Source: Candidatus Sericytochromatia bacterium
Lineage (GTDB): Bacteria; Cyanobacteriota; Sericytochromatia; UBA7694; JACMQJ01
Length of the DNA: 64,000 nucleotides
NCBI GenBank assembly: GCA_046328015.1
Contig: JAXLXH010000001.1
Coordinates: forward strand, 2,546,350 to 2,610,349
Direction of reading: 5' to 3'
The notes under the pieces are model-generated. The model was not told where the DNA came from. It made no database searches and worked only from the letters and a program-made list of their open reading frames with translations. Both the position numbers and the translations under genes were made by a program. This document shows positions 6,261 to 61,281 of this stretch, piece by piece; within the stretch, counting starts at the first letter, position 1; each line of letters opens with the position of its first letter.

Positions 6261-6420
6261 CTAATTTTATTGATAATTTAAAATCAAGAGCCAGTTCCTT
6301 ATAAACTATCTTTTTTTGATAGACCTGAAGTTCATATTGGTTGAATGATGTTAATGTTTCACCTTTTCAATAACTTTAATAGCTTATGCTTTATATAGTT
6401 GGAGAAAAAATTAAGAGCAT
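6261..6420 (+). pseudogene. collapsed remnant of a paralogue of the glycine-zipper gene at 7865..8254
   Basis: 6261-6287 matches 7898-7926 ('taattttattgataatttaaaatcaa'), then joins directly to a match of 8034-8100 ('gagccagttccttataaa...tttgatagacc.gaagttc.tattgg') and 8215-8245 ('agcttatgctttatatagttgg'). Internal deletions remove the Gly-rich core and the frame is destroyed. Confidence 0.55.
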
Positions 6421-6437
6421 TTTTTATTTACAGATAA

Positions 6438-7445
6438 TTATTTTATATTGTTTATAAATTTTATTATAAGAGGCATAATTTTTTTATTTAGAGGCAAGTT
6501 AGGATTAATATAGGTTTTTAGATTTTCTGATACATCAATTGGTGCATCTTTCAATATATGATTCATATTTTCTATTATTTCTATTTTTGAATTTTTATTT
6601 GATGAATTTAGTTCTATTGCATTAGCAACACTTACTTGTAAATCTGTTGTGCCTTGAATAATTTGAATATCACAATTAAGATTTTTTATCTCTTTTGCAG
6701 GAGAATATTTTAGCCATGAAATTAAATAATTTTGACTTTTTGTCGCAAATACAAATTTTAATGTAGGATCTTTTATATCATTAACAAGTTTACCTTCTTT
6801 AAGATTTTTTATTATATAATTTAATTCTTCTTGATCAATATTAGGTTTTTTTAATTGTTCTAATAATACTTCACCAGCTTCTTTTCCCAAACCTGCTATA
6901 GATACAAACCCATTTACTTTTTCTTTTTCTGCACTAATTATACTTATTAAAGAACCTTCACTATGACCTAATAAAATTATTTTATTAAATCTTTTATCAT
7001 TTTTAAAAAATTTTATAATTGAAATAAGATCATTAATTCCGTCTTCTAAAGTTATATTTGATAAATTAAAATTATTTATTTTTTCAGGGTGAAGATACCT
7101 TTTATCAAATCTAAAAGAGGCTATTTTATCTTTGGCTAGTTCTTGAGATATATATTTATATGAATTAGTATTTAAGTTTATTTTTAAATCATTTCCATCT
7201 CTATTAATTGAACCAGAGCCAGGTACTATTAAAGCTATAGTTCCATTAGTAAAATTATTTGGTAAATTTAAAGTACCTAATATTTTGCCATCTTTTATAT
7301 TTATTTCTAATTCTTTTTCAACATATTCAATATTATTAGATATAAAAGTATCTTTTGATTTTGAATTATCAATATTTGCAAAAGCTTGGTTGAAACTAAT
7401 TAATAAAAAAGAAAAAAATATTAAATGTAATTTTTTTAAATACAT
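6438..7445 (-). CDS. secreted alpha/beta-hydrolase (serine hydrolase)
   Basis: 'LLGHSEGSLI' nucleophile elbow (GxSxG). Signal peptide 'MYLKKLHLIFFSFLLISFNQAFA'. The ORF-track start at 7478 is probably an N-terminal over-extension. Confidence 0.65.
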   Translation of the reverse strand: MYLKKLHLIFFSFLLISFNQAFANIDNSKSKDTFISNNIEYVEKELEINIKDGKILGTLNLPNNFTNGTIALIVPGSGSINRDGNDLKINLNTNSYKYISQELAKDKIASFRFDKRYLHPEKINNFNLSNITLEDGINDLISIIKFFKNDKRFNKIILLGHSEGSLISIISAEKEKVNGFVSIAGLGKEAGEVLLEQLKKPNIDQEELNYIIKNLKEGKLVNDIKDPTLKFVFATKSQNYLISWLKYSPAKEIKNLNCDIQIIQGTTDLQVSVANAIELNSSNKNSKIEIIENMNHILKDAPIDVSENLKTYINPNLPLNKKIMPLIIKFINNIK

Positions 7446-7608
7446 AAATTTTCCAATAAATACAATAAAAAATATCAATAATAATATGATATTAAATTTA
7501 TAAATAATATCTTTGTTTATTAAAAATTAATAGATTATCCTATTTTATATCTATTCCCATTTTTTTAGCATACAAGTTTATAATTATCTATACTTAAAAT
7601 TATTATAA

Positions 7609-7757
7609 ACACACACTTTGTCGTTCCGTAAGATCCTGAATCAAGTTCAGGATGACTAGGGAATCTAGTGTGTTTTTCTTATTTTAAACCTATAAAAAGT
7701 TACTTAGATCCTGAATCAATACTGAATCAAGTTCAGCATGACTTGAGGATGACTATA
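7609..7757. repeat. pair of small palindromic elements carrying the 'gatcctgaatcaagttcaggatgact' hairpin (related to repeat family C)
   Basis: 'cctgaatcaagttcagg' hairpin occurs twice (about 7632 and 7720). The first copy is bracketed by acacact/agtgtgt inverted ends. Confidence 0.5.
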
Positions 7758-7864: not shown

Positions 7865-8254
7865 ATGATAAATGCAATTCCTAATTCAAATCCAATAAGT
7901 AATTTTATTGATAATTTAAAATCAAAACCTATTTCTAATAATAATTATACTGCTGTATCAACTTCTTATAAATCAGATGCTTTTACTTTAAATACTAATA
8001 TTACAAAACCTATTCCTACAGATCCTCCTTATCAAGAGCCAGTTCCTTATAAACCTTCTTTTTTTGATAGACCCGAAGTTCGTATTGGTGGTATGATGTT
8101 AGGTGCAGGTGCTGTTGGTGGTGGAATTGGATACGCTGTTGGTTCTGCTTTTGGCAGAGCTAGCTTAGGTACAGCAATAGGTACAGGTGTAGGAGTTACT
8201 GCTCCAATAGCTTTATTAGCTTATGCTTTATATAGTTGGGGTAAAAATAACTAA
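7865..8254 (+). CDS. small membrane protein with C-terminal glycine-zipper (GxxxG-rich) hydrophobic segment and Asn/Pro-rich N-terminus
   Basis: '[23 protein letters not shown]...[22 protein letters not shown]' resembles Gly-zipper_2TM-type segments (established family knowledge). No signal peptide. Confidence 0.5.
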
Positions 8255-9288
8255 GAATATTTCTCTTCAAATAATAATGCTATTTTTACTAAAAATAATA
8301 AAACTGGTACTTCTACTAAAGGTCCAATAACACTTGCAAAAGCCGAACCAGAATTAATTCCAAAAACGGCAATTGATACAGCCAAACCAAGCTCAAAGTT
8401 ATTACCTGCTGCTGTAAAAGCCATAGCAACAGCTTTTTTATAATTAGTTCCCATTTTTATAGTTAAATAAAAAGTTAGGAAAAACATAATAGCAAAATAT
8501 ATACTTAAAGGTATGGCTATACGAATAACATCAAAAGGAATAGTTAGAATTAGATTGCCTTTTAAACTAAACATTACAAAAATGGTAAATAAAAGTGCAA
8601 TTAATGTAAAGGGGCTAATAATAGGGACATATTTTTCTTTAAACCATTTTTCACCTTTAGTTCTAATTAGAAAATATCTAGATGTAAATCCCATTAAAAA
8701 AGGAATTCCTAAATAGATAAAAACAGATTCGGCTACTTGTTTCATTGTTATAGCTACTTCAAATCCTTTTATTCCAAAAAATGGAGGTAAAATAGTTAGA
8801 AAAAACCAAGCATATACAGAATAAAATAAAACTTGGAAAATACTATTAAAAGCAACAAATGAAGCTGCTAAAGTATTATCTCCTTTAGCTAAATCAATCC
8901 AAACTACAACCATAGCAATACAAGGAGCAATTCCCATTAACATCATACCAGTCATATATTCAGGTTTATCTGGTAAAAATAAAATAGCTAAACTAAACAT
9001 TAAAAGTGGAGCTAAGATCCAAACTAGAAAAAATAATAAACTTATAACTTTTATATTTTTAAATACTTTAGTAATTTCAGTATAATTAACTTTTGCTAAT
9101 GGTGGATACATCATAATAATAAGCCCAATAGCAATAGGGATATTTGTGGTTCCAGATTGAAACTTATTCCAAAAAGAAGCTAAAGAAGGTAAAAAATAGC
9201 CTAATATTACTCCCAAAAACATTGCTGAAAAAATCCAAACAGTTAAATATCTATCTAAAAAAGAAAGTTTTTTTGTTAACTCAGACAT
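8251..9288 (-). CDS. acr3: arsenite efflux permease, ACR3 family
   Basis: N-terminus '[13 protein letters not shown]' matches the conserved ACR3/ArsB(YqcL) signature. Polytopic hydrophobic protein. Lies in the ars cluster. Confidence 0.85.
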
Positions 9289-9720: not shown

Positions 9721-9756
9721 TTTATTCTCCTTTAGTCTTTATTTTTATTAGATAAT

Positions 9757-9869
9757 ACGGGGGTGTCTAAAAAGTGTGCGTTAATTATAACGCCCATACT
9801 AAAACACTGGCTTTCACCCTAGTCTTTCGTAAAAAAAAGACCTAGAAAAAGCCTTTTTGGACACACCCG
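9757..9869. repeat. family-B-like MITE with terminal inverted repeats (gggtgtctaaaaag ... ctttttggacacaccc)
   Basis: GC-rich element in the AT-rich arsI-arsC spacer. The ends form a perfect inverted repeat of about 14 bp. Related to the 14081 and 22174 copies ('ttttacgaaa' core). Confidence 0.55.
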
Positions 9870-9948
9870 TTTCAGGGGTACGGGAGCAGAGCCACCCATC
9901 CCTTCCTCCTGCGGGGTTGATAACCCGTAGGAAGTCTTAAATTCATTT
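9870..9948. repeat. family-A GC-rich palindromic element (REP/RPE-like), copy 1
   Basis: 'tttcaggggtacggg...cccttcctcctgcggggttgataacccgtaggaagtcttaaattcatt' shares core and terminus with the copies at 12679 and 63459. Confidence 0.75.
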
Positions 9949-10068
9949 ATACTTTATGAACTAGTTTACAATTTATTTGCAAACTAATCCATATTTAGTA
10001 TAATTTTAATTGAATCATTTAAACTTATGTTAGTTGGGTAAAACCCTCTAACAAAGTATTTTATTATT

Positions 10069-10996: not shown

Positions 10997-11851
10997 TTAA
11001 TCAAAAACATCAGATGGTTTAAGTGGCGTATCTACATACATATCCAAAGTAATACTAGTAGAAGCATGACCTAAATATTTAGATATACCTTTAATACTTT
11101 TCCCTTCTTGATGTTTTATGGTAGCAAAAGAATGTCTTAAAGTATGAGGATGAACATCTTTTAGCAGTATTTCTTGTCCATATTTATGTATTTCAGCATG
11201 AACATATCTTCTAGAAAAAGGTTCTCCATTTTTATTTATAAATAAATAATCTTTTGATTTATAAGCATTTTTTATTCTTTTTAATAATTCATCTGTTAAA
11301 TATATGGTTCTTTCTTTTCTACCTTTACCAACAACTTTAAAATAATGGAAACCTTGAGATAATTTAGAATTTTTTAATCTTAAGCTTAATAACTCACTAA
11401 CTCTCAAGCCACTAATAGCTAAAGTTTCAATTATTAAGGAGATTTTTTTAGGTGTTTTTTCTATCAAAATATCAATCTCTTCTTTATTTAAAGTATCACC
11501 TTCATAAATAGCTTTATCTATTTTAAACCCCTTTAATTCTTCTTTAAAAAACTCATTTAACATGCTAATAAACATATAACTATCAGATTCTTTGGGTAAA
11601 GTTTTTTTTATGCCCAATTTTAAAGCTTGTTTTTTTACATTTAAAGTTTGAGGACTATAATCTTGTTTTAATAACCACTGCCAAAAAATAGCTAAATTTT
11701 CTCTGGTTAGGGGTAAATTATTATCTTTTAGGTAATTATTAAATTGCTTTATATGGCAATCATAGTTTTTATCATTAATAAAAACCATACCTTCTAATGA
11801 GTTATTATTATTTACTTTTTCTAAAGTATTATCAGATAATATCAAATCCAT
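10997..11851 (-). CDS. tyrosine recombinase (XerD-like / phage-integrase family)
   Basis: C-terminal catalytic box 'HPHTLRHSFAT...LGHASTSITLDMYVD' (R-H-R-Y residues). N-terminal SAM-like core-binding domain. Confidence 0.8.
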   Translation of the reverse strand: MDLILSDNTLEKVNNNNSLEGMVFINDKNYDCHIKQFNNYLKDNNLPLTRENLAIFWQWLLKQDYSPQTLNVKKQALKLGIKKTLPKESDSYMFISMLNEFFKEELKGFKIDKAIYEGDTLNKEEIDILIEKTPKKISLIIETLAISGLRVSELLSLRLKNSKLSQGFHYFKVVGKGRKERTIYLTDELLKRIKNAYKSKDYLFINKNGEPFSRRYVHAEIHKYGQEILLKDVHPHTLRHSFATIKHQEGKSIKGISKYLGHASTSITLDMYVDTPLKPSDVFD

Positions 11852-11855: not shown

Positions 11856-12806
11856 TTATTCGGTTACAAATATTACTTTCTTCTCTAAAAACTGAGAATT
11901 AAGCTCTTTTTCATATTCTTGAGCATCAAGTTTTTCTAAATCTTTTGCCTTAATATCAAAATAATTTTTAGCAAATTTTTTATTAAAATCTATTTTAATC
12001 ATTTCTTTTATTCTTACAAGAGATTCTTTAAAAACATTATCATCATATTCATAACGAATATTTTCTATTTTTAGTGGAAAATTTAATTTTTTAGAAAACC
12101 AAATATTTATTTTATCAATATATTTACTTTCGCTAAAATATTCTGTTTTGGGGTATATTTTTATGCGTTCTATGTTAAAAACTTCGCAATCATAACCTTT
12201 AAATTTTTCAGTATAAATTTTTTTATGTTTTATATTTTTTAAAAAATTATAAAGCTTTTTGTTATTTTCAAACATTTCATAATCATAAATATTTTCTATA
12301 GCAAAATCAAAAACTTTGGTATCCTTAGTTAAATTTTTATATTCCATACCAAAATCATTATATTTATCTAAAAAACCGTTAAAAGAATAAAAAATATTTT
12401 TATCTTTATCAATAATAATATAATTTCTAGTATTATCATTACCTAAAGTTGTTATTTTTATTTTATTTTTTATAGTGCTATAAACTTCTTTTTGTCCATA
12501 AAAACCATGGTCTTTTAATATTTCAAGTAAATTAGTTTCAGTAATATTTTCTTTTAATTGGGGATAAACCTTAGTATCATAAGTTATTTCAATATTTTCT
12601 GGTAAAGCATAAGCTTTTTGAAAATTTAAAATAATTAAACTAGTAAAACCAAATAAAAAATATTTTATGATTACTAGAGAAGACCTCAGAGCTCCGCTCT
12701 GGGGTTTCAGGGGGTACGGGGGCATAGCCCCCGATCCCTTCCTCCTACGGGGGATCACCCCCGTAGGAGGTCTTAAATTCATTATTAAAGAATTATTTAA
12801 AACCAC
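11856..12806 (-). CDS. hypothetical secreted protein; N-terminal about 40 codons are read through a family-A repeat
   Basis: Hydrophobic signal-like segment 'IIKYFLFGFTSLIILNFQKAYA'. The only in-frame ATG upstream (MPPYPLKPQ...) lies inside the repeat at 12679-12784. No family assignment. Confidence 0.45.
   Translation of the reverse strand: MVLNNSLIMNLRPPTGVIPRRRKGSGAMPPYPLKPQSGALRSSLVIIKYFLFGFTSLIILNFQKAYALPENIEITYDTKVYPQLKENITETNLLEILKDHGFYGQKEVYSTIKNKIKITTLGNDNTRNYIIIDKDKNIFYSFNGFLDKYNDFGMEYKNLTKDTKVFDFAIENIYDYEMFENNKKLYNFLKNIKHKKIYTEKFKGYDCEVFNIERIKIYPKTEYFSESKYIDKINIWFSKKLNFPLKIENIRYEYDDNVFKESLVRIKEMIKIDFNKKFAKNYFDIKAKDLEKLDAQEYEKELNSQFLEKKVIFVTE
12679..12784. repeat. family-A GC-rich palindromic element, copy 2
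   Basis: 'gagctccgctctggggtttcagggggtacgggggcatagcccccgatcccttcctcctacgggggatcacccccgtaggaggtcttaaattcatt' contains the perfect palindrome cctacgggggatcacccccgtagg and gacctc/gaggtc ends. Confidence 0.8.
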
Positions 12807-13951: not shown

Positions 13952-14080
13952 AAAAAACCCTCAAAGATATAAAATAAAATTCCTTATTAATAATAGTAAA
14001 AATTAAAAAAATATTTCTTCATTTAAAGGTTTTTTAACAATTAAATTTTATATAATTCCTGATGGTTTCAAAAAAACATC

Positions 14081-14174
14081 ATTTTTTACGAAAAATATTG
14101 GTGTAAAACCCAGTATTTTCGTAGAGGAAAAGCACTGTTTTGTCCTCTCCGAGACCCCCAAGGTCTTAATTTTA
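14081..14174. repeat. family-B MITE copy
   Basis: 'ttttacgaaaaatattggtgtaaaacccagtattttcgtagaggaaaagcactgttttg...ggtcttaatttt' matches 22190-22283 almost base for base in the core. Confidence 0.75.
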
Positions 14175-14999
14175 AAAAGAGTCAATTTTTTCTATATCTT
14201 CTTTTTCCAGATTAATAGATTTATAAGAAGAAATAGCTAAGTTTATATTTTCTTTTTTAGTGGAACTAATAATAGGTATAATATTTGAACCTTTACTTTT
14301 TATCCATAAAAGAGTAATAATTTCAGAGCTTGTATTATATTTTTTTGCCAATGATTGTAATAAATTATCTAATAAAGTATTATTTCCTTTATGATAAATT
14401 CCATAAGCAAAATATAAAATATTGTTGTCCTTACAATAATCTAATAAACCTGTTTTTAAGTCTTTCTGAAAAAAAGGATTAAGTTTATTTTGTATAGAGT
14501 AAATACCACTAATTTTATCTAAATTTTGAAATTCATATAAATCTATTAAATCTATATTTGATAAGCCAAAATTTAAAATTTTACCTTTTTCTTTTAATTC
14601 TTTAATAGTATTTAAAATTATATTTTTAGCTACTTTTTTATCATAAACATGTAATTGATAAAGAAAAAGCTTTTTTAAATTCAAATTTTCTAAGCTTTTA
14701 TTGCAACAATAATTCAAAAATTCAGGTCTATTATCTATAACAGATTGATTGTTTTTTATATAATAACCGCCTTTAGTAGCAATAAATAATTCTTTTAATT
14801 TTTCACCTAATAAGCTTTCTAAAAATCTTTCATTACCACCAATATCATCATAATTTTTACCATAATAATATGCGGTATCTATAATATTTATATCCGAATC
14901 TAAAACGTGTTTTATAAGCTCTTTACTTTTTAGAGTATCTTCTTGAAGCTTTTTTGATAAAATAAAGCTACCATAAGCAAGATTAGAAATATTATTCAT
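14172..14999 (-). CDS. aldo/keto reductase-family oxidoreductase
   Basis: 'IIDTAYYYG' resembles the AKR 'IDTAxxYG' active-site region. Length and pattern are consistent with an AKR. Confidence 0.55.
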   Translation of the reverse strand: MNNISNLAYGSFILSKKLQEDTLKSKELIKHVLDSDINIIDTAYYYGKNYDDIGGNERFLESLLGEKLKELFIATKGGYYIKNNQSVIDNRPEFLNYCCNKSLENLNLKKLFLYQLHVYDKKVAKNIILNTIKELKEKGKILNFGLSNIDLIDLYEFQNLDKISGIYSIQNKLNPFFQKDLKTGLLDYCKDNNILYFAYGIYHKGNNTLLDNLLQSLAKKYNTSSEIITLLWIKSKGSNIIPIISSTKKENINLAISSYKSINLEKEDIEKIDSF

Positions 15000-15001
15000 A
15001 A

Positions 15002-15787
15002 TTAATTAGCTATATCTATATAATCTGTATGAACATCACAAGGATTTTTCATTTCTTGCATTCTCCAATAATTTCTACCATTATATTTTTTAAAAGTAAA
15101 ATCTCCTAATCTTTGACAAGGCATACCAGAAAAAATATGGTTTATTTGCATAGTAATTTTTCCATTAAAATTTAGTTGGTATTTATCAATACTAGTAAAA
15201 AAACCATCTATTTCTAAAAAATCACCTTTTACTTTTTTTGAATTATATCTACCTTTCATAAAAACTTTATTATCTTTTTCAAAAACCTTGATCTTTTCAT
15301 AATCATTAAAACTTATCCATTGTAAAGATATTTTAGTGTTTTTTAATAAGCTTTTTTTAGCTTTACTGTCTTTTATTATGGTTTTAGTATAATCAGGTGC
15401 TTTTAGATTAAATTTAAGTTCTTTACCTTCTCCTTTTGGTAGCCAAGTTCCAGTAAAATTATTATCTAAAATTTTACCTTCCAAAGAGCCTGTAACTTTT
15501 TCTTTATCAGTAGATTCAGCTACAAAAATATTAGTAAGATTTTTATAAAAATCTCCATCATATCCTCCATCTAAAGTTAAATATTTTATACCCTCAGAAT
15601 CATAAGAATAAAATCCTGTAAGATGAGGATCTTTTTCATTATTATTTTTTATAAGTGTTAATTGAATAGGATATTTGTCCAATTTTCCAGAAAAATATCT
15701 GTAATAAGCACCTGCTGTTTCTTCTGAGAAGGAGTTATTTGTAAATAATAATTGTAAAATACCTATAAATAAAATAGTTTTTTTCAT
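15002..15787 (-). CDS. hypothetical secreted protein
   Basis: Signal peptide 'MKKTILFIGILQLLFTNNSFS'. No family recognised. Its start lies 3 nt from the stop of the AKR gene. Confidence 0.5.
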   Translation of the reverse strand: MKKTILFIGILQLLFTNNSFSEETAGAYYRYFSGKLDKYPIQLTLIKNNNEKDPHLTGFYSYDSEGIKYLTLDGGYDGDFYKNLTNIFVAESTDKEKVTGSLEGKILDNNFTGTWLPKGEGKELKFNLKAPDYTKTIIKDSKAKKSLLKNTKISLQWISFNDYEKIKVFEKDNKVFMKGRYNSKKVKGDFLEIDGFFTSIDKYQLNFNGKITMQINHIFSGMPCQRLGDFTFKKYNGRNYWRMQEMKNPCDVHTDYIDIAN

Positions 15788-15902
15788 AATAATATCCTTT
15801 TATGTTTAATTTTTATTTATAGTATAGAAAAATATACACAAAAGACATATTTTGTAATATAATTTTATTTTAGTAAAAACTTGTTTAAATATTGAGGTAA
15901 AA

Positions 15903-16637
15903 ATGAAAAAGATAATTTCTTCTATTCTTATGACATCTATTCTTTCATACTCGCTAACTTCTTGTACTAACCAAACAGAGAATCTAAATTTAACAGAATT
16001 AAATAATGTTGAAATAGCTAGTTTTTCGTCTAATGATAAAGAAGATATAGACAAAGTTTTTAATTATATAGATACAGATAAAAACTCTAAAATATCTATA
16101 ACAGAATTAAGCAAAGTTTTTAGTATATTAACTTCTGATAATAATGCGTATAAAGAAAAATTTAAATTAGTAGAAAAAGCTTTTCAAAATACAGATCTAG
16201 ATAAAAGTCAAACTTTGGATAAAAAAGAATTTGCTTCGTTTTCTACCGAACTAGATAAATTATCTGGAAAGATAGCTAAAAACTCTTTAGAATCTAAACC
16301 AAATAAAGTTGACCCTCAATATGTGAAAAAAACTTTTGATATGATTAGAGGTTCTGAAGATTATATTAATGAAAAAGCTTTTGTAAAATTTTTAACTAAC
16401 CCTCCAGATGTTACTGCTGGAGATGCTGTTAAAGTTTTTGTTCAATTAGATAAAAATAAAGATAGACAATTAGATTTAAAAGAATTTTCTAAACTTTTTG
16501 ATAAAATGGGTGATACTGTTGATAAAAATGGTATATTAGATGGTGTTAAAAAGGCATTTACTATGGCAGGTTTAATGCTTCTAATGCCTTTAGCATGGTT
16601 AGCTGAAAAGTTAGATATATTTCATAATATAAAATAG
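15903..16637 (+). CDS. EF-hand calcium-binding lipoprotein
   Basis: Lipobox 'SLTSC'. Two canonical EF-hand loops, 'DTDKNSKISITEL' and 'DKNKDRQLDLKEF' (D-x-[DN]-x-[DN]...E). Confidence 0.65.
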   Translation: MKKIISSILMTSILSYSLTSCTNQTENLNLTELNNVEIASFSSNDKEDIDKVFNYIDTDKNSKISITELSKVFSILTSDNNAYKEKFKLVEKAFQNTDLDKSQTLDKKEFASFSTELDKLSGKIAKNSLESKPNKVDPQYVKKTFDMIRGSEDYINEKAFVKFLTNPPDVTAGDAVKVFVQLDKNKDRQLDLKEFSKLFDKMGDTVDKNGILDGVKKAFTMAGLMLLMPLAWLAEKLDIFHNIK

Positions 16638-16655
16638 TTAGGTGAGTAATAAATA

Positions 16656-17885
16656 GTGAAGGTTTGGCATACAAAAAAATTATTTATAGGTTTTATAATT
16701 TTAGCTTTTTCAATAAATATTTCTTGTCAACCAGAATATGGTTATGTAGAGTTACCTAAATATGATTTCCCAGAACCTTCTGCTACACCAAAACCTTCTG
16801 TTAGTCCTAAAGAAGAAGAAGAAACTAAAACTACCACTAAACCTAAAACTGAACCTAAAAAAACTCCAGAAACACCTAAAAATACTTTAGATACTATTTT
16901 TTTAACATCAGAAGTTAAACATAAGTTAGAAAAATATGTAAAAGAAGATTTAAAAAGTACCTTTGATAATAATGGTTATTACCTATACTACAAAAATAAA
17001 GATGAAGAAGGTTTAATGATTAATAAAAAAGGTTCTAATTCTGCTTATTGGGTTCATGCAGATATTTATAAATCTTTTAAACAAGCTGGAGGGATAGAAA
17101 TTCTAGGCTACCCTGTAGCTGAACAAGAATTTATTCATCAAGATAAATTAAAAGATACTGTGGCTAAGCAACTTTTTGAAAAAGGGGTAATTTATTATTT
17201 TAATGATCCAGATTTAGAAAATTTTTATGAAAATACTTTGGTAAGATTATATGATGATTTAAAAATAGATAATATTGATTTTAAGTTTAAAACAGATGCC
17301 AATCTACCTACTTATGCAGAAAAATCTACAGGAAGACAAGGTGATCCTATAAATATAATTTTTATTGCAAAAAATCAAGAGCAAATAGAAAAAGCTTTTG
17401 ATGATTCTAAATGGGTTAAACCAAAATTTGGTTTTAATAATATACCTTTTTCTGAATTACAAGTTTATGGTAGAGGACAAGATTTAGGTTATGCCAGAGA
17501 AACTAGTAATATTTTTACTTTTTATAAAAGAAGACATCATATAAGATTTTGGAATTCTGCTACTAAAGAAAATGATAAAGAAATGTGGGTGGCAGCAGCT
17601 ACTGAAGATGTTGAAGTTAAGTTTAAAAATAAAGATTTAAGACAAGAAGAAAAGAATAATAAAGATCCTGATAGAAAAAATCCTTTAACGCATAAAATAG
17701 ATCCTGATACAGATAAAGAGCGAGAATACGTTAGAAAAACTTTAACAGAAAAAAATCCCAAAATTAAAACTTATTTTGTAAAACACCCCAAAATATCGGA
17801 TAAATTTGTTGATACTACTAATAGTAGTTTAGATTTGGTACTTTGGGATGGTAGAATTTTAGTTGTGGATTTAAGTGATATTTAA
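16656..17885 (+). CDS. lipoprotein with Pro/Thr/Lys-rich linker and an LGFP-like repeat
   Basis: Lipobox 'NISC'. Linker 'PKPSVSPKEEEETKTTTKPKTEPKKTPETPK'. 'GGIEILGYPVAEQEF...QLFEKGVIYYF' fits the LGFP-repeat pattern (LG[FY]P...Q.FE.G.IYW). Confidence 0.5.
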   Translation: MKVWHTKKLFIGFIILAFSINISCQPEYGYVELPKYDFPEPSATPKPSVSPKEEEETKTTTKPKTEPKKTPETPKNTLDTIFLTSEVKHKLEKYVKEDLKSTFDNNGYYLYYKNKDEEGLMINKKGSNSAYWVHADIYKSFKQAGGIEILGYPVAEQEFIHQDKLKDTVAKQLFEKGVIYYFNDPDLENFYENTLVRLYDDLKIDNIDFKFKTDANLPTYAEKSTGRQGDPINIIFIAKNQEQIEKAFDDSKWVKPKFGFNNIPFSELQVYGRGQDLGYARETSNIFTFYKRRHHIRFWNSATKENDKEMWVAAATEDVEVKFKNKDLRQEEKNNKDPDRKNPLTHKIDPDTDKEREYVRKTLTEKNPKIKTYFVKHPKISDKFVDTTNSSLDLVLWDGRILVVDLSDI

Positions 17886-18712
17886 GAAAAATTATGTAGC
17901 TCATAACCTATCATCATTTTTTTCTTACCACTACCCCAATAGTAATTTCCTATCTTACATTCTTTTCTTATAACTCTATGACAAGGAATTAAATAACTAA
18001 TTGGGTTAGAACCAATTGCAGTTCCAACAGCTCTAATTGCTTTAGGGTTTTCTATATGATTCGCAATAGTTTGATAACTTACTAAAATTCCTTCTGGTAT
18101 TTTTAATAAAGCTTCCCAAACTTTTATTTGAAAATTAGTACCTTTTAATAATAGATTTAATTTCCCTTTTTTTAATTCACCATAAAAAATCTTGTTTACA
18201 ATATCTTTGGTGTTTTCTTTATTTTCAATAAAATTACTTAATTCCCATTTTTCTTTTATTTCATTTAGAGCTTTATCATAATCATTGTTTATAACAAAAC
18301 CTAAACCACAAAGCCCTCTTTTTGTAATTGCTACGATACATTCTCCAAAAGGAGTATCATGAAATCCATATTCAATATTTAATCCTTTACCTTTGGTTTT
18401 ATATTCATTAGGTGTCATTGCTTCAATATTAACAAATAAATCATAAACTCTAGATTGAGCAGATAAACCAGCATAGTCTGAAATTTCACAAACATTACTA
18501 ATATCATAAATTTTATTTTTAATGTATTCTATAGTAAGATAACCCAAAAATTTTTTGGGACTAATTCCAACCCAGTTTATAAATTCTTTTTGAAAATTAT
18601 CTGCTTTAAATCCAAATTTTGTAGCAATCTCTTCTATTTTAGGATTATTATTTTTATTATCATAAATATATTTTATGATTTCTTCCATTTTATAATAATT
18701 TTCTTTTTGCAT
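17882..18712 (-). CDS. Ada-like fusion: AraC-type HTH regulator + O6-methylguanine-DNA methyltransferase
   Basis: C-terminal 'IPCHRVIR' is the MGMT active-site PCHR motif. N-terminal AraC-type HTH. Confidence 0.8.
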   Translation of the reverse strand: MQKENYYKMEEIIKYIYDNKNNNPKIEEIATKFGFKADNFQKEFINWVGISPKKFLGYLTIEYIKNKIYDISNVCEISDYAGLSAQSRVYDLFVNIEAMTPNEYKTKGKGLNIEYGFHDTPFGECIVAITKRGLCGLGFVINNDYDKALNEIKEKWELSNFIENKENTKDIVNKIFYGELKKGKLNLLLKGTNFQIKVWEALLKIPEGILVSYQTIANHIENPKAIRAVGTAIGSNPISYLIPCHRVIRKECKIGNYYWGSGKKKMMIGYELHNFS

Positions 18713-18789
18713 AAAATTAACCCTCTAATTTTTTATAGTTTAATTTTAAAATAAAAAAGATTATAACCCAACCTGATTTTAGAAAAAAA

Positions 18790-19224
18790 CTATTTAAGTT
18801 TAATTATTACATTAGGAATCCATAATTTTATCCAACGAGAGATTTTTTCTTCGGCACTTAAAATTTTTGGGGATACATTTAAATTGTCTCCAAAATTTAG
18901 TTTTTGCTCTAAACAACTTAAATTGATATTTCCATAAATACCAGAATTATCTTTAAAAATTACAGCTACAAAAACACCACAGTTTTTACATAAAATAAAA
19001 GAAGCATTATTAGAACCTTGTTGATATTCATGAATACTTTGCTCTTTAGCTTCTATTACTAATTCTCCTAAGGGATCAGAAATATATTTAGCACCATGTT
19101 TTTGACAAAAAGAGCAATCACAAACTCTAGGGTTAATCTCTGATTGCTCTAAATTGGTAGCAAAAGTAAAAGTTATATTTTTACAATAACAACTACCATA
19201 ATGAGTAAATTTTTTTACTGACAT
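18790..19224 (-). CDS. GFA-family (glutathione-dependent formaldehyde-activating-like) zinc-binding protein
   Basis: Cys motifs 'GSCYCKN', 'RVCDCSFCQKHG' and 'CKNCG' are typical of GFA/CENP-V domains. Confidence 0.55.
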   Translation of the reverse strand: MSVKKFTHYGSCYCKNITFTFATNLEQSEINPRVCDCSFCQKHGAKYISDPLGELVIEAKEQSIHEYQQGSNNASFILCKNCGVFVAVIFKDNSGIYGNINLSCLEQKLNFGDNLNVSPKILSAEEKISRWIKLWIPNVIIKLK

Positions 19225-19232
19225 TTAAATTC

Positions 19233-19586
19233 TTATAATTTACATTTTTTTGCTTCATCAATCTCAGGAGTTAAAGCTAAAAAGTCTTTAGCTAATTTTT
19301 CGTATCTAGCTAAATCTTCAGCTGAAACATTAGCAGGGTAAGCTTGAAAAGTCATATAATCATTCATAATAGATTTTTTTTCAGGTTTACTATCAGGCAC
19401 TTTATCTACAATACATTTAAAAAAGGCTAATAAAGTAACTTTATTCAAAGTTCCTGTAGGTGCAGCTGAAGCACTTGGAGCTACACTAGAATTTGGTGTA
19501 GGAGAAGAACTAGAATTTGTAGCTGGAGTTCCATTACAAGCTGTTACGATTAATAAGGTTGATAAGGCTATAATAAATTTTTTCAT
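19233..19586 (-). CDS. small lipoprotein (hypothetical)
   Basis: Lipobox 'IVTAC', Ser/Pro-rich linker, two Cys. Lies between the GFA gene and the P-type ATPase gene. Confidence 0.45.
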   Translation of the reverse strand: MKKFIIALSTLLIVTACNGTPATNSSSSPTPNSSVAPSASAAPTGTLNKVTLLAFFKCIVDKVPDSKPEKKSIMNDYMTFQAYPANVSAEDLARYEKLAKDFLALTPEIDEAKKCKL

Positions 19587-19663
19587 TTTTTGCTCCTTAT
19601 AAAATAATGAATACTTAATTTTATAACTAATATTTTTTAATGCAATATTTTAATAAAAAATAA

Positions 19664-22036
19664 TTACGAAAATTTAGTTTCTAAATCTTTTTTTAAAACT
19701 AGAGAGTTTCTTATAATTAAAAGGCTACTTATTGCCATAAAAGCTGCCGCAAATATTGGTTGTAAAAAACCAAGCATAGCTAATGGTATAGATACAAAAT
19801 TGTAAGAAAAAGCCCAAATAATATTTATCTTAAGGTATTTTAATGATAATTCACTAATATAAAATATCTTTAGTAAGTTATCAAAATCATTTTTCATAAA
19901 AGTAATATCAGATGCTTCTATAGAAATATCACCAGCATTTGATACAGAAACTCCTATATCTGCTTTTACCAAAGAAGGAGCGTCATTTATACCATCACCA
20001 ATCATTAAAATTTTTTCTCCCTTTTTTTGTAAATTACTAATAAAATTTAATTTATCAGCAGGTAATTGTTCATAATAAAATTCTGAAATACCTAAATTTT
20101 TAGCAATATATTCTGCTGAGTTTTTATTATCACCTGTTAGCATTATAACTTTTAAGTTTTTTGCTCTTATATTATCTAAGGTTTCTTTTACTTTTTCTTT
20201 TATATTATCTTCTATAAATAAAGAAGCTACTAGTTTATTATTAATACTACAAAAAACCATAGTTGAAATTGAGTTTTTATTATCATTAGTAGTAATAATA
20301 TTATTGCTGTCTTTTTCAATAAAATTTTTATTACCTATTTTTATATGAAAGTTTTTAAAATTTCCTTCTACTCCTAAACCTTTAGTTATTTGAAAATTTG
20401 TTATATTATCTAAATTTATTTCTTTTTCTTTTACATAATTAACAATAGATTTAGCTATAGGGTGTTCTGAATATTTTTCAATACTTCCAATTAATTTTAA
20501 TACTAAATCTTCTGAATAATCATGATTAGAAAATTCAACTTTGACAACTTTCATTTTACCTTCAGTAAGAGTTCCTGTTTTATCTGTAATAATAGTAGTA
20601 ATTTTATTTAATTCTTCTATTAAATTAGAGTTTTTTATGATAATACCTTTTTCAGCTGATTTATCTAAAGCTGTATGAGTAGCCATAGGTACCGCTAAAC
20701 CTAAAGCACAAGGACAAGCAACTACTAATACTGCAATAGCATTCATAAGAGCTATTGAGTTGTTTTGAGTAAAAAATACCCATAAAACCCAAGTTAGAAT
20801 AGCTAATAAAAATACTATTGGTATAAAATAAGCTGAAATTTTATCTGCAACTTTTTCAAATTCAGTTTTTTCATTTTGAGCTTTTTCCACTAAATCAATT
20901 ATTTTTGCAAGAGTTGTATTTTCAGATGTTTCTGTAACTTTAAATATGAAATAGTTATCTTGATTTATAGTAGCAGAAAAAACTCTGTTACCTACTTTTT
21001 TACTAACAGGCTTATATTCTCCAGTTATCATAGATTCATCTATATGAGATTCGCCTTCAATTATTATGCCATCTAGAGGGATTTTTTCTCCTGCTTTGAC
21101 AATTACAATATCATCTATTTTTATTTCATCAATATTTTTTTCGATTTCTAAGTTATTTTCTATTACTTTAGCTGATTTAGCATTAAGAGTCATAAGTTTT
21201 TTTATAGTTTTACCTGCTTTATTTTTAGCGGAATTTTCTAAAAATTTACCTAATAAAACAAAAGCAATTATCATTGATGCGGTATCATAATAAACATTAA
21301 ATTTTCCATAAAAAGTTTCATATAAGCTATAAAAATAAGAAGTTAGAGTTCCAAAAACAACTAGAGTTTCCATACTTAACTTTTTTTGAGTTAGTTTCAT
21401 GATCGCACTTTTTATTAAAGGATAGCCTAAAACAAAAACAACAATAGTACATAAAAATGCCTGTATGTATATAATAGCTGGTATAACTTCTTTATAGTTA
21501 TCCAATTGTCCATAATATATACCCATACTAAATGACATAATATTCATGGATAAAAACCATACAGAAGCTAATCTTAATAAATACATATCTGTAATATTTT
21601 CAATATCTTCTAAAGAGTTTTTTTCAATTAGAGTATAACCAAATTTTTTTAATTCTTTTTTTGTTTTATTCAGATTAAAATTTTTAGAATCAAAAGATAT
21701 TTTTACTTTTTCAGAAACCAAATTAACCTTAGCTTCTGATACTCCTTCTTGTAAGGTGAGTACTTTTTCTATTATAGGTGAACATGAAGTACAAGTTATT
21801 CCTTTTAAATAAAAACTATCTGTTTTATCAAAGTTTAAATTTTTTTTTTCTTTAATATCAATTTCATTTTTTATGAGATCTTCTAAAAAAGATTCTTTGT
21901 CTTTTACTTCTTCAGAGTTAACTAACTCATAAGCTATAGAGCAACCTAAACAACAAAATTTAAAATCAGTTTCTTTAAACTTTTTTTCTATAAAATTTCC
22001 TTTTATAGGTGTATTACAATGAAAACAATTATTCAA
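19664..22036 (-). CDS. heavy-metal (Cu+-type) translocating P1B-type ATPase with N-terminal Cys-rich zinc-ribbon-like motif
   Basis: 'DKTGTLT' phosphorylation site, 'CPC' in the transmembrane region, 'SEHPIA' HP motif, HMA 'GITCTSCS'. N-terminal 'CFHCNT...FCCLGCS' resembles the FixI/CcoI-type N-termini. Confidence 0.85.
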   Translation of the reverse strand: MNNCFHCNTPIKGNFIEKKFKETDFKFCCLGCSIAYELVNSEEVKDKESFLEDLIKNEIDIKEKKNLNFDKTDSFYLKGITCTSCSPIIEKVLTLQEGVSEAKVNLVSEKVKISFDSKNFNLNKTKKELKKFGYTLIEKNSLEDIENITDMYLLRLASVWFLSMNIMSFSMGIYYGQLDNYKEVIPAIIYIQAFLCTIVVFVLGYPLIKSAIMKLTQKKLSMETLVVFGTLTSYFYSLYETFYGKFNVYYDTASMIIAFVLLGKFLENSAKNKAGKTIKKLMTLNAKSAKVIENNLEIEKNIDEIKIDDIVIVKAGEKIPLDGIIIEGESHIDESMITGEYKPVSKKVGNRVFSATINQDNYFIFKVTETSENTTLAKIIDLVEKAQNEKTEFEKVADKISAYFIPIVFLLAILTWVLWVFFTQNNSIALMNAIAVLVVACPCALGLAVPMATHTALDKSAEKGIIIKNSNLIEELNKITTIITDKTGTLTEGKMKVVKVEFSNHDYSEDLVLKLIGSIEKYSEHPIAKSIVNYVKEKEINLDNITNFQITKGLGVEGNFKNFHIKIGNKNFIEKDSNNIITTNDNKNSISTMVFCSINNKLVASLFIEDNIKEKVKETLDNIRAKNLKVIMLTGDNKNSAEYIAKNLGISEFYYEQLPADKLNFISNLQKKGEKILMIGDGINDAPSLVKADIGVSVSNAGDISIEASDITFMKNDFDNLLKIFYISELSLKYLKINIIWAFSYNFVSIPLAMLGFLQPIFAAAFMAISSLLIIRNSLVLKKDLETKFS

Positions 22037-22173
22037 AATTAACTAAACTAATATCTTATATAAATTAAACTTTTTTAGATAATTTAAGCAGATGATTTAT
22101 AAAAACACAAGTATAACTTAGTTAAAAGTTAGGTGATGTTTTTTATCTTTTCTACCGATATTTTTAAGATTTT

Positions 22174-22283
22174 GGGGTTGTCCAAAAAGACAATTTTTAC
22201 GAAAAACATTGGGAGAAAACCCAGTATTTTAGTAGGGGAAAAGCACTGCTTTGCCCGTTTTTGGACACCCCCGTAGGTGTGAG
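22174..22283. repeat. family-B MITE copy with inverted termini (ggttgtccaaaaag...gtttttggacaccc)
   Basis: Core identical to 14081-14150. The termini are inverted repeats. Confidence 0.75.
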
Positions 22284-22298: not shown

Positions 22299-23372
22299 TT
22301 AACTATTCATTATTTTATTTTGAATTTCAATTGACTCTGTATGAATACTTTGAAAAATCTCCATAATAAATCTATCTGATAAATGTTTACCTTTTGCTAA
22401 TTCTTGCATTTTATGTAAAATTTCATCCCATCTAGAAGGTTGTAAAATAGTAATATTATTTTCTTTTTTATATTTACCAATTTCACTTACTACTTGCATT
22501 CTAGAACTAAGCATATCAATTAATTGAGTATCTATTTTATTAATTTGACTTCTTAATTCATCCAATTTATTATTAAAATTACTATTATCAGAACTTACTT
22601 TTCTTAAAACTAATTTACTTAATATTTCAGCTAATTCGTCTGGTTTAACTTGTTGTTTTGCATCACTTAAGGCAACTGAAGGATCTCTATGAGATTCTAT
22701 CATTAAACCATCATAATTTAAATCTATAGCTTCTTGAGAAACTTCTTGTAAAAATTTTCTATCCCCTGTAATATGGCTAGGATCGCATATTAAAGGCATT
22801 TCCGGAAATCTTCTTTTTAATTCTATAGGCAATTCCCAATGAGGTTGATTTCTGTATTTTCCTTTTTCATAGCTAGAAAAACCTCTATGTATAGCAGCAA
22901 GTTTTTTTATACCAGAATTATTTAATCTTTCAAAAGCTCCTAACCATAATTCTAAATCAGGGTTAACAGGGTTTTTTACCATTACTGGAATATCAACTCC
23001 TTTTAAGGCATCTGCTATTTCTTGAACTGCAAAAGGGTTAACAGTTGTTCTTGCTCCAATCCATAAAATATCAATTCCAGCTTCCAAAGATTCTTCTACG
23101 TGTTTTGCAGTAGCAACTTCTATAGTTACAGGTAAACCTGTTTCTTTTCCTGCATCTTTTATCCATTTTAGAGCTTCAGTTCCAACTCCTTCAAAGGTAT
23201 TTGGTCTTGTTCTTGGTTTCCAAACTCCTGCACGTAAAATATTTACATTATGTTTTGCCAAATTTACACAAGTTTCCATAACTTGTTCTGGAGATTCGGC
23301 ACTACAAGGACCTGATATGATTATAGGTCTTTTTAAATCACTTTTAAAAGGTTGTTCTAATTCCAATTTCAT
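22299..23372 (-). CDS. bifunctional 3-deoxy-7-phosphoheptulonate synthase / chorismate mutase
   Basis: 'PIIISGPCSAESPEQV' DAHP-synthase (KDO8PS-like class) N-terminus and a C-terminal chorismate-mutase-like helical domain. SD 'aagagga' 9 nt before the ATG at 23372. The longer track start at 23432 lies in a family-B repeat fragment. Confidence 0.8.
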   Translation of the reverse strand: MKLELEQPFKSDLKRPIIISGPCSAESPEQVMETCVNLAKHNVNILRAGVWKPRTRPNTFEGVGTEALKWIKDAGKETGLPVTIEVATAKHVEESLEAGIDILWIGARTTVNPFAVQEIADALKGVDIPVMVKNPVNPDLELWLGAFERLNNSGIKKLAAIHRGFSSYEKGKYRNQPHWELPIELKRRFPEMPLICDPSHITGDRKFLQEVSQEAIDLNYDGLMIESHRDPSVALSDAKQQVKPDELAEILSKLVLRKVSSDNSNFNNKLDELRSQINKIDTQLIDMLSSRMQVVSEIGKYKKENNITILQPSRWDEILHKMQELAKGKHLSDRFIMEIFQSIHTESIEIQNKIMNS

Positions 23373-23426
23373 TTTTTTATTCCTCTTTTTAATATAATAA
23401 ACTTTTTTTATAATTTTTCTTAAAAA

Positions 23427-23460
23427 GGACAAAGCTGTGCTTTTACCCTACGAAAATACT
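23427..23460. repeat. partial family-B repeat (reverse orientation)
   Basis: 'ggacaaagctgtgcttttaccctacgaaaatact' is the reverse complement of the B core 'agtattttcgtag.ggaaaagcac.g.tttgtcc'. Confidence 0.6.
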
Positions 23461-24855
23461 TTATTTTTTCAAAATACCATCTAAAACCCTTCTAATTTCA
23501 TTAGTATCTTTCATATAATCAAAAATTTTATTATATTCTTTATTATCAAGATACTGTTTAAAAACTAAAAGATTTTTTATATATTCATCTAAAGCTGTAG
23601 AAACATTTTCCATATTTTGTTCAAAAATAGGTGTCCACATAGCAGGAGAACTTTTTGCTAATCTAACTGTAGATTCAAAACCGCTACCAGCTAAATTAAA
23701 AATAGTAGTTTCATCTTTTTCTTTTTCTAAAACTGTTGCACCCAAAGCAAAAGAGCTTATATGAGATAAATGAGAAACATATGCTATATGTAAATCATGA
23801 GCTTTAGAATCCATATATAAAATTTTCATACCTAAAACTTGATATATTTTTTCAACTTCTTTCACTGCAAAATCATAGCTTTTTTCTTGATCACAGATAA
23901 TACCTGTTTTTTTTGAAAATAAACCAGAAAAAGCGGCTTTAGGTCCAGAATGTTCTGTACCAGCAATAGGATGTCCTGCTACAAAGTTTTTTCTATTTTT
24001 ATGATTTTCAACAGCAAGACAAATATTTTCTTTTGTCGAGCCTACATCAGTAACTATAGTAGTTTCATTTATTTTATCTAAAACATTTTGTAAAACTTTT
24101 TCTGTTGCATTAACAGGTATAGAAACTAGTACTAAATCAGAGCTTTTTACAGCCTCATCTAGTTCTTTTATTTCATCTACAATATTTAATTCCAAAGCTA
24201 ATTTACAATTTTCTTTATTATTATCTACACCTATTATTTTATCTATATAATTAACTTTTTTTAGATCTAAAGCTATAGAACCACCTATTAAACCAAGACC
24301 AATAACTGTAATAGTTTTTAATTTTTCTTTTCTAGGCATGTTTTCTAAAATACTATTGATAAAAGGAGCTTTTGCATTTGTATATTCTTCTCTTATTAAG
24401 CCTTTACTTTCTAAATCTAATTTTAATTTTTCATATTCTTCAGCTTTATTTGGATTATTATTCATATAATCTCTAAAAAAAATAGTTTTATTATAATCTT
24501 CAGAGTTTAATTCAAACATATGTATATGAAATTTAACTATTTCACCTATAGTTCTAAAATAGTGTCTTTTTTCTATACCAAATTCTCCCATGAATTCATA
24601 ACCAATTTTTTTTAATCCTTCTATACAGTTAAAACCATCATCAAATTTAGTTATTCCTATACATATATCTATAATTGGCTTTGCGGAAATATTTTTTATA
24701 GAGGTACTTCCAACATGATCTATGGTTTTTATATAAGGAGCGATTTCTCTTAGAATTTTATTTTTTTCATTTTCAAATTCTTTTATCCATAGTTCATTAT
24801 GAGGAAATAATTTTATTTCACCTTTTTTTAAACCTATTATATTTTCTTTATTCAT
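23461..24855 (-). CDS. tyrA: GrpB-domain / prephenate dehydrogenase (TyrA) fusion
   Basis: N-terminal GrpB/UPF0157-like domain 'FPHNELW...IDHVGSTSI'. Central Rossmann 'ITVIGLGLIGGSIALDL' and the TyrA catalytic region. Confidence 0.75.
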   Translation of the reverse strand: MNKENIIGLKKGEIKLFPHNELWIKEFENEKNKILREIAPYIKTIDHVGSTSIKNISAKPIIDICIGITKFDDGFNCIEGLKKIGYEFMGEFGIEKRHYFRTIGEIVKFHIHMFELNSEDYNKTIFFRDYMNNNPNKAEEYEKLKLDLESKGLIREEYTNAKAPFINSILENMPRKEKLKTITVIGLGLIGGSIALDLKKVNYIDKIIGVDNNKENCKLALELNIVDEIKELDEAVKSSDLVLVSIPVNATEKVLQNVLDKINETTIVTDVGSTKENICLAVENHKNRKNFVAGHPIAGTEHSGPKAAFSGLFSKKTGIICDQEKSYDFAVKEVEKIYQVLGMKILYMDSKAHDLHIAYVSHLSHISSFALGATVLEKEKDETTIFNLAGSGFESTVRLAKSSPAMWTPIFEQNMENVSTALDEYIKNLLVFKQYLDNKEYNKIFDYMKDTNEIRRVLDGILKK

Positions 24856-24867
24856 ATTTTTATTTTT

Positions 24868-24958
24868 CCTTGTCAGAATCAGGATTCACAAGATTTTAGG
24901 ATTAACAGGATTATTTTTTATTAGAACAACCCAATCCTAAAAATCTTGATTCAGAAAT
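24868..24958. repeat. family-C MITE with terminal inverted repeats (tctgaatcaggatt...aatcctaaaaatcttgattcaga)
   Basis: Termini are inverted and match the 25343-25446 copy. Lies between the tyrA start and the GxxExxY stop. Confidence 0.75.
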
Positions 24959-25329
24959 TATTTTTTACCTTTAAAAATTTTTTTATATTGTAAACTACTA
25001 GAACCAAAATTTATTAATAATCCTATTGGAAAATCATAAGCCACAACATAATTTTTTGCTTGTGCTAAGTGTATATCTTCCAAATTTATTAAAGCTTTTA
25101 ATTCAACTACAACACAATTTTCTACGATAAAATCTGCTCTTCTTGTTCCTACATTTATACCATCATAAAAAATAGGTTGCTCTTTTTCTTTTTCAAAAGA
25201 TAATCCAGCACGTTCAAACTCAATACTTAAACATCTTTGATAAATAACTTCTTGAAAGCCGTTACCCAAAGTATTATGTATTTTCATTGCTCCACCAATA
25301 ATTTTATATGTTATTTCTTCTAATTCCAT
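24958..25329 (-). CDS. GxxExxY-family protein (PD-(D/E)XK-like), bracketed by two family-C MITEs inside the aromatic operon
   Basis: 'KIIGGAMKIHNTLGNGFQEVIYQ' carries the GxxExxY motif. 123 aa. Confidence 0.7.
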   Translation of the reverse strand: MELEEITYKIIGGAMKIHNTLGNGFQEVIYQRCLSIEFERAGLSFEKEKEQPIFYDGINVGTRRADFIVENCVVVELKALINLEDIHLAQAKNYVVAYDFPIGLLINFGSSSLQYKKIFKGKK

Positions 25330-25342
25330 TTTATTTTCCTTT

Positions 25343-25446
25343 GTCTGAATCAGGATTCACTGGATTTTAGGATTAGCAGGATTATTTTGCATTAGATTAA
25401 CCCAATCCTGTAAATCTTTTAATCCTGAAAATCCTGATTCAGACAA
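25343..25446. repeat. family-C MITE copy
   Basis: 'tgtctgaatcaggattcactggattttaggatt...aatcctgaaaatcctgattcagaca' has perfect terminal inverted repeats. Overlaps the aminotransferase stop. Confidence 0.75.
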
Positions 25447-35737: not shown

Positions 35738-36809
<1,072 letters not shown>

Positions 36810-61208: not shown

Positions 61209-61281
61209 CAAAGTATATTTTTATAATAATTTTAAGTATAGCTAATTATAAACTTATAGCTATTGATTTAAATATACTAAA

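Follow-up and report, generated by a model that had tools for sequence, protein, structure and literature searches.

A short repeat family in a Sericytochromatia chromosome probably consists of decayed miniature elements derived from the IS1182 family

[quoted passage not shown] The results showed that family B is a real repeat, with three full-length copies and one 43-nt fragment in the window. It is probably a small family of decayed, non-autonomous MITEs derived from an element with an IS1182-family DDE transposase, by which it would once have been moved in trans. We read the family as IS1182-derived because its terminal inverted repeats (TIRs) match the ends of IS1182-family insertion sequences (ISs) that were recovered independently. 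With this reading, an anonymous GC-rich repeat of poorly studied, non-photosynthetic relatives of Cyanobacteria is assigned to a defined transposon family. Family B is fairly ordinary selfish DNA and not a new kind of system.

The copies of family B (Table 1) were delimited by several searches of the window. An nhmmer profile recovered four copies (E 5e-28, 7e-24, 8e-24 and 1.5e-4) and nothing else in the 64 kb. The pattern TGTCYAAAAA-N60-90-TTTTTRGACA matched twice, at copies 1 and 2, with 0 matches expected by chance, and the 14-mer GGGTGTCCAAAAAG, allowing up to two mismatches, matched only the four ends of these two copies (0.18 expected). The cores of copies 1 and 3 had been called near-identical, which was overstated: 14083-14142 shares 88% identity with 22194-22253 across 60 nt (blastn-short, E 4e-13), and a separate comparison gave 84% over 73 nt. 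Copy 3 had been placed at 14081-14174; a B copy does lie there, but the alignment set its true span at 14061-14159. At least four places with inverted termini had been proposed and four copies were found, but the 16-nt TIRs are intact only in copies 1 and 2 and in a homologue from another genome described below; they are degraded in copy 3 (14061-14159) and partial in the fragment (23418-23460). A truncated reverse copy had also been reported at 23427-23460, overlapping the DAHP synthase 5' region. We recovered it as a reverse partial copy (23426-23460, 88.6% identity over 35 nt, blastn-short E 2.5e-5), but it lies outside the coding region, because the DAHP synthase start at 23372 gives a 357-aa protein that is an exact NCBI entry; the 88 intergenic nt that separate this ATG from the prephenate dehydrogenase stop (23461) contain the fragment. 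The full copies are 99-110 nt long and contain no open reading frame (ORF), and the copies occupy four different intergenic sites with unrelated flanks. Short, non-coding, dispersed and TIR-bounded, family B fits the MITE reading of the original prediction. Relative to transcription, two copies lie each way, as expected with insertion at the DNA level.

Each unit consists of a left TIR (GGGGKTGTCYAAAAAG, 16 nt), a short spacer, hairpin 1 (TACGAAAAA..TTGGG / CCCAGT..TTTTCGTA), the tetranucleotide GTAG, hairpin 2 and a right TIR. The ~65 nt of non-coding DNA between the TIRs holds the two hairpins, and no transposase remnants were found inside B. The whole unit folds as a three-way structure closed by the TIRs. 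The DNA folds were far more stable than those of shuffled sequence (z -4.2 to -7.1; copy 1, -21.2 kcal/mol, z -4.2; copy 2, z -6.4), and RNA gave similar results on either strand. Hairpin 2 occurs in two sequence versions, AAAAGC...GCTTT and GCGTTA...TAACGC, in which the pairing is kept. The homologue in the other genome (L064:5942-6043), a Sericytochromatia metagenome-assembled genome (MAG) of 28% G+C, has the same architecture and lies 7 nt past a stop codon. Past the right TIR of copy 1 stands CCCCCGTAGG, and a 12-mer, CACCCCCGTAGG, is common to the right edge of this copy and to hairpin 3 of family A, a separate repeat described below.

The link to the IS1182 family came from the ends. In a viral collection, single occurrences of the 16-mer were located first and inverted partners were then sought regardless of distance, which gave two informative elements. 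One of them, 1758 bp long (L301:4426-6183), ends in AAAGGGGCTGTCCAAAAAG and AAAGAAGGTGTCTGAAAAG; its protein scored 486 bits on NF033551 'IS1182 family transposase' (NCBIfam, cutoff 270) and contains the Pfam domains DUF772, DDE_Tnp_1 and DDE_Tnp_1_6. The other (L229:10627-11228, from an IMG/VR contig) is a 602-bp, internally deleted IS1182-family element with both TIRs and a truncated transposase (aa 24-167), and judged by its sequence it is an intermediate between an IS and a MITE. IS1182 relatives annotated as such in RefSeq were fetched by protein similarity alone, and their ends were read afterwards. The ends compared were AAAAAAGAGGCTGTCCGAAAAG (Bernardetia element, both ends), GGGGCTGTCCAATAAG (L337), GAGGCTGTCTCAAAAG (ISMsp1), GAGGTTGTCCCAAAAG (ISBce1, both ends), GAGGTTGTGTCAAAAC (ISBf3, both ends), GGGGCTGACCCAAAAG (IS1182) and GGGGCTGTCCCAAAAG (Paenibacillus element). 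The results showed that IS1182-family ends from several phyla read GRGG(C/T)TGTCYNAAAAG. The B TIR is identical to the L301 end (compared as GGGGCTGTCCAAAAAG) at 15 of 16 positions and to that of ISBce1 at 14 of 16; the Bernardetia end was compared as GAGGCTGTCCGAAAAG. The proposal that an IS with TIRs matching 'gggtgtccaaaaag' should exist was therefore borne out by IS1182-family elements carrying this end. A string search of the literature for the TIR returned irrelevant primers only, and neither a Bacillota MITE nor a synthetic TIR concatemer had a BLAST match among plasmids.

The same ends mark a much wider class of short elements. The 10-mer end pair occurred at more than 118 loci in genome representatives of Bacteroidota, Spirochaetota, Chloroflexota, Bacillota, Nitrososphaerota and others, some of them chance coding matches, for example in a ribosomal protein gene. 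At 68 of the 119 matches the inverted repeat was extended outward by a conserved GRGGC, often between A- and T-runs. Raw counts were similar for two control 10-mer pairs searched in the viral collection, but almost none of their matches had the extension or a conserved flank, indicating that the end class is specific. No full-length IS lay between the TIR pairs at 118 genome loci, where only multiple short elements were found. Around the wider-class elements there was no recurrent neighbour gene, save a ribosomal-protein operon that came from the chance coding matches, and no consistent target-site duplication among the 119.

Some members of this end class showed further features. In an Ignavibacteriales MAG (L072:3627-4480), the left part of an IS1182-type MITE, including the left TIR, is present in six tandem 147-bp copies with a single right TIR. 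This array recalls the tandem left-end duplication of IS1272L; IS1272 may bear tandem duplications of its left end (PMC5678879). Each end of the full-length IS1182-family elements at L301:4426-6183 and L346:~345-2140 is a terminator-like hairpin, (A)n-GRGGC-TGTCC.AAAAG-loop-GCCYC-(T)n, which may explain why MITEs that keep two such ends look like long bidirectional terminators. Sub-families with other outer arms (L002-L119) occur in Flavobacteriia (CGTCAGWCTGTCTAAAAAC) and Nitrososphaerota (GGGGAGACTGTCTAAAAACTAG), as well as at Saccharicrinis loci, and some of their elements have conserved DNA past the hairpin. A sub-family start in CGTC is reminiscent of the repeats termed 'CGTC-tagged' by Di Nocera et al., which had no known transposase.

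The insertion sites pointed in the same direction as the ends. Copies 1, 3 and 4 lie 26, 12 and 0 nt downstream of the stop codon of the neighbouring gene. Elements of the wider class lie in 22 convergent, 21 tandem and 4 divergent gene contexts, with a median of 30 nt to the stop. In a relative whose DAHP synthase is 81% identical (L120), a plain AT-rich hairpin follows this gene after ~31 nt, and the junction between prephenate dehydrogenase and DAHP synthase is without the ~75-nt insert that holds the B fragment in the window; this is one empty site only, and it concerns the fragment. New insertions of IS1272, a member of the IS1182 family, were found in inverted-repeat structures 15-66 bp downstream of genes, which were replaced without target-site duplication (Wan et al. 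2017, PMC5678879). The position bias may equally well reflect retention of tolerated or useful hairpins instead of targeting.

Copy 2 gives the clearest view of an insertion. The original prediction described a TIR-bearing relative at 9757-9869 fused to a family-A copy, and this held: copy 2 is reverse-oriented, has clear inverted termini and directly abuts an A copy. Family A is a separate GC-rich repeat with three hairpins and four copies, and it has no IS1182-type ends or TIR. In the A copy at 9738-9964, the hairpin 1 of the other A copies is missing and B copy 2 stands in its exact place; the hairpin replaced is 20 nt long, and this is a single case. The 5' arm of the composite (9738-9757) has 2 mismatches in 20 to the A 5' motif, with 0.32 matches expected in the whole window. 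As far as these fossil copies can tell, B copy 2 appears to have replaced a family-A hairpin without duplication. The only real link between A and B is that one A copy served as a B insertion site. The idea of a shared origin or a shared mobilising enzyme had been drawn from a resemblance of the two termini, and it was not supported. The supposed B terminus 'ggtcttaatttt' (14162-14173) lies outside the degraded right TIR of copy 3 and overlaps the aldo-keto reductase stop, and the flanks of the other copies are unrelated to it. Since it is the flank of a single B copy, the terminus claimed to be common to both families is accidental.

These observations suggest how family B may have spread. 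B keeps two ends with predicted transposase binding (the 16-nt GGGGKTGTCYAAAAAG) around ~65 nt, and an IS1182 transposase of this lineage presumably moved it by replacing inverted repeats. By analogy with IS1272, insertion would be aimed at existing inverted-repeat hairpins, such as terminators just past genes; the incoming element would replace the target hairpin, and no target-site duplication would be made. The copies are probably old, to judge from the G/C that the TIRs of two of them have lost to the A/T mutation pressure of the genome, and from one that is a fragment. A present role of B, for example as an RNA 3'-end hairpin or a terminator, is speculative.

Several observations weigh against an IS1182 origin. 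No transposase, including any of the IS1182 family, was found in the 64-kb window with Pfam and NCBIfam (ORFs of at least ~110 aa and several shorter ones). Only four B copies are present in the window, two of them with damaged ends. Direct reading of the flanks found no direct repeat beside any B copy, so the target-site duplications that the original prediction had asked about are missing; their absence does not exclude the IS1182 subclass of MITEs, because IS1272 likewise leaves no duplication (PMC5678879). L064 was the only other genome with the B core, which makes the evolutionary sampling thin: its pattern had 0 matches in GTDB representative genomes, and a looser pattern had three in JGI metagenomes, two of which look like chance in ordinary sequence while the third (L126) is a similar hairpin. 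Finally, both-sided changes at four stem pairs of hairpin 2 keep its structure, and GTAG stands just before this hairpin in three window copies and in L064, the fourth copy having GTAT. These compensatory changes and the GTAG could indicate selection on structure or a REP-like module, not neutral junk.

This last point is the basis of an alternative that we consider quite improbable, namely that the copies are REP-like (repetitive extragenic palindrome), GTAG-tagged palindromes moved as single-stranded hairpins by an HUH/Y1 tyrosine transposase (RAYT/TIRYT). It draws on the GTAG and the structure kept by compensatory changes, on CCCCCGTAGG past the right TIR of copy 1 and on hairpin 3 of family A, which reads CTAC-GGGGG...CCCCC-GTAG. 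GTAG REPs occur in Cyanobacteria, and RAYT-like genes can be flanked by long TIRs with a GGGG motif (Di Nocera et al., PMC3733652). However, the B TIR misfits the GGGGWSAS motif of that study and shares 14-15 of 16 positions with IS1182-family ends. REPs are single hairpins of 20-40 bp, whereas B is a 100-nt unit bounded by TIRs; copy 4 has GTAT, and protein family scans of the ORFs found no Y1 transposase in the window. We give just as little credence to host-encoded structured elements (intrinsic terminators, stabilisers of mRNA 3' ends or a small RNA) that are alike by function or gene conversion. The strong folds, the covariation in hairpin 2, the position of the copies just downstream of stop codons and the strong bias of the wider class to gene 3' ends would all suit such elements, but the closing stem has no U-tract past it on the transcribed strand, the orientation is mixed, and the ends are shared with a known IS family. 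In addition, a deletion intermediate with transposase remnants exists (L229), and one B copy is nested in family A. Rfam gave no match at gathering score for the window and 18 related loci, and at E<=10 only chance-level miRNA matches.

Two further readings bear on the clustering of the copies. The copies could be att-like sites of the Xer-like tyrosine recombinase at 10997-11851, bordering an island at 9.7-14.2 kb; the recombinase gene does lie between B and A copies, and positions 9933, 12769 and 14162 carry GTCTTAA(A)TT in direct orientation. This is very unlikely, as that 11-mer is not enriched (8 one-mismatch matches against 5 expected), other B copies, at 22.2 kb, at 23.4 kb and in a second genome, have no recombinase nearby, the recombinase scored 62 bits against a cutoff of 265 on the integron-integrase model, and the B ends agree with a family of DDE transposons. 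It is scarcely conceivable that the copies are pieces of one longer duplicated region, which the original prediction had named as its refuting case. A 14-kb stretch holds three of the four copies, but the similarity stops at the element ends, the copies occur in both orientations and their flanks hold unrelated genes, so that a single larger duplication is refuted. Integron attC sites were rejected as well: the B ends read TTTRGAC and not GTTRRRY (core GTTRRRY/RYYYAAC), and the score of the recombinase is the one given above. TnpB/IscB guide-RNA remnants, group II intron pieces, Tn3-type 38-bp ends (Tn3-derived inverted-repeat miniature elements, TIMEs), IS1595/IS1016 ends, IS630/Tc1 ends with TA duplication and ends of the IS5 type were considered for families A and B as well; none of them had a partner protein or a matching end, as IS1182 did. 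A consensus terminator scan was uninformative.

Among known systems, IS1182-derived MITEs have been described in Methanosarcina acetivorans, where elements related to ISMac2 are 160-169 bp long and their direct repeats measure 4 or 0 (Kamoun et al. 2013, PMC3852290). Like these, B is short (100-170 bp for the class) and non-coding, has TIRs that copy IS1182-family ends and occurs in several dispersed copies; unlike them, it belongs to another phylum, has other internal sequence and is decayed, and no partner IS was found for it in the window. IS1272 and IS1182 themselves (PMC5678879) resemble B in end type, lack of target-site duplication, hairpin sites past genes and the replacement of one hairpin of another repeat, but they are 1.5-1.9 kb long against ~100 nt and carry the transposase gene that B lacks, and in B the replacement was read from fossils and not observed as an event. 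SPRITE of S. pneumoniae and GTAG-tagged REPs (PMC10969869, PMC3733652) share with B the GC-rich hairpins after genes in both orientations and the GTAG beside a stem-loop, and like them B may act as an RNA 3'-end structure; unlike them, B has long TIRs of the DDE-transposon type and no U-tract, and no RAYT association was found. The TIRs of the BrickBuilt/MITEPgRS elements of Porphyromonas gingivalis (GAGACTGTTGCA type) match partners in the IS5 family, which is related to IS1182 (Klein et al. 2015, PMC4596501). B is similar in its MITE nature, in irregular or absent target duplications and in nesting into other repeats, and differs in IS family and TIR. The internal tandem array at L072 parallels the BrickBuilt minisatellite, whereas the window copies have no tandem array.

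A broader idea, which is possible but on the whole doubtful, is that IS1182-type MITEs are portable hairpins that swap in trans for resident terminator or REP-like hairpins by inverted-repeat replacement. If so, a sizeable share of the structures ~30 nt past stop codons in many phyla would be co-opted ends of mobile elements, such a swap would have left its fossil in the B-in-A composite at 9738-9964, and the AT-rich Sericytochromatia genome would retain these GC-rich elements as the only stable hairpins available. Hairpin replacement has so far been described for IS1272 in Staphylococcus only, and the B-in-A nest together with the bias to ~30 nt past stop codons offers independent, cross-phylum support, at the sequence level, for hairpin-replacing, duplication-free insertion. 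For annotators, inverted pairs of GRGG(C/T)TGTCYNAAAAG 60-90 nt apart provide a signature that recognises a very widespread class of IS1182-derived hairpins. This signature and the support for hairpin replacement outside Staphylococcus may be worth more than the finding of B itself. Hairpin elements also create spurious ORFs, and two ORFs of the window read through family-A copies.

Table 1. Copies of families B and A in the window (TIR, terminal inverted repeat)
Feature	Position	Strand	Description
B copy 1	22174-22272	+	99 nt, best preserved; downstream of the stop codon (22299-22301, minus strand) of DAHP synthase/chorismate mutase, upstream of copA
B copy 1, left TIR	22174-22189		GGGGTTGTCCAAAAAG
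B copy 1, hairpin 1	22198-22234
B copy 1, GTAG	22232-22235
B copy 1, hairpin 2	22236-22256
B copy 1, right TIR	22257-22272		reverse complement GGGGGTGTCCAAAAAC
B copy 2	9759-9868	-	110 nt, opposite orientation; hairpin 2 differs in sequence (GCGTTATAATTAACGC), same structure
B copy 2, end	9759-9774		GGGGGTGTCTAAAAAG
B copy 2, end	9853-9868		GGGTGTGTCCAAAAAG, as reverse complement
B copy 3	14061-14159	+	99 nt; core 88% identical to copy 1; both TIRs degraded (left GATGGTTTCAAAAAAAC, right CTCCGAGACCCCC); beside the aldo-keto reductase stop codon (14172-14174, gene on minus strand)
B copy 3, right TIR	14147-14159
B copy 4	23418-23460	-	fragment: 3' half of hairpin 1, hairpin 2, A/T-decayed right TIR; directly after the prephenate dehydrogenase stop (23461)
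Family-A reference copy	12652-12799	+	three GC-rich hairpins; hairpin 1 at 12684-12704
Family-A copy	63439-63588	-	just upstream of the RNase II gene; stems differ from the 12652 copy
Family-A copy	58330-58425	-	internal deletion
Family-A 5' arm of the composite	9738-9757	+	TTTATTTTTATTAGATAATA; adjoins the left end of B copy 2
Rest of the composite's family-A element	9869-9964	+	hairpins 2 and 3, ending ...GGAAGTCTTAAATTCATT; adjoins the right end of B copy 2

Family A has the 5' part AATTTTATTCTTATTAGAGAATA and the 3' part GGTCTTAAATTCATTATTAAAG, with stems that vary among copies. Its hairpin 3 is the palindrome with CTAC and GTAG at its borders given above, and the family may be REP-like in nature. 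A possible extra 5' fragment lies at 34081-34100. The two ORFs that run in frame through A copies (11856-12806 and 58233-59726) acquire N-terminal extensions such as MNLRPPTGVIPRRRKGSGAMPPYPLKPQSG, and their starts are probably spurious; the canonical start of the 11856 gene was seemingly displaced by the A insertion.

The window has 24.5% G+C and reads well with the standard bacterial code. It probably comes from a very AT-rich genome of Sericytochromatia, and the close homologues of the DAHP synthase/chorismate mutase in NCBI are labelled Candidatus Sericytochromatia or Cyanobacteria. The genes include chromosomal housekeeping functions (ars genes, copA, an aromatic amino-acid operon, dnaE, cysS and ftsW), and no tRNA genes were found in the window. 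Beside the recombinase, a 384-aa and a 316-aa protein have no family matches; one resembles a low-complexity protein and the other a secreted one, and neither looks like a transposase.

Other features were noted along the window. GrpB and prephenate dehydrogenase form one fused 464-aa ORF (23461-24855), and in L120 they are two adjacent, separate genes. Between the aminotransferase gene and this fused gene lies a 123-aa PD-(D/E)XK gene (PF13366, 24958-25329), flanked by AGGATT-rich, 90-nt direct repeats (24858-24947 and 25329-25418, 87% identical), with an inverted repeat at 25341-25446. The stretch 24858-25418 looks like a small inserted cassette, because the aminotransferase and GrpB-prephenate dehydrogenase genes overlap in L120, where the insert is absent. 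At 35738-39660, ~3.5 kb has 14-21% G+C and no ORF of at least 110 aa; this region may be decayed or disrupted, and it begins beside a truncated C-terminal fragment of a D-Ala-D-Ala ligase (35738-36118, 126 aa). Local duplicated segments (92% and 75% identity) were found at 6283-6459 and 8031-8296, and the 87 nt at 7571-7657 have an inverted duplicate 53 kb away at 61172-61258. A 33-nt periodic repeat lies within the SPFH/Band-7 gene (31290-31454).

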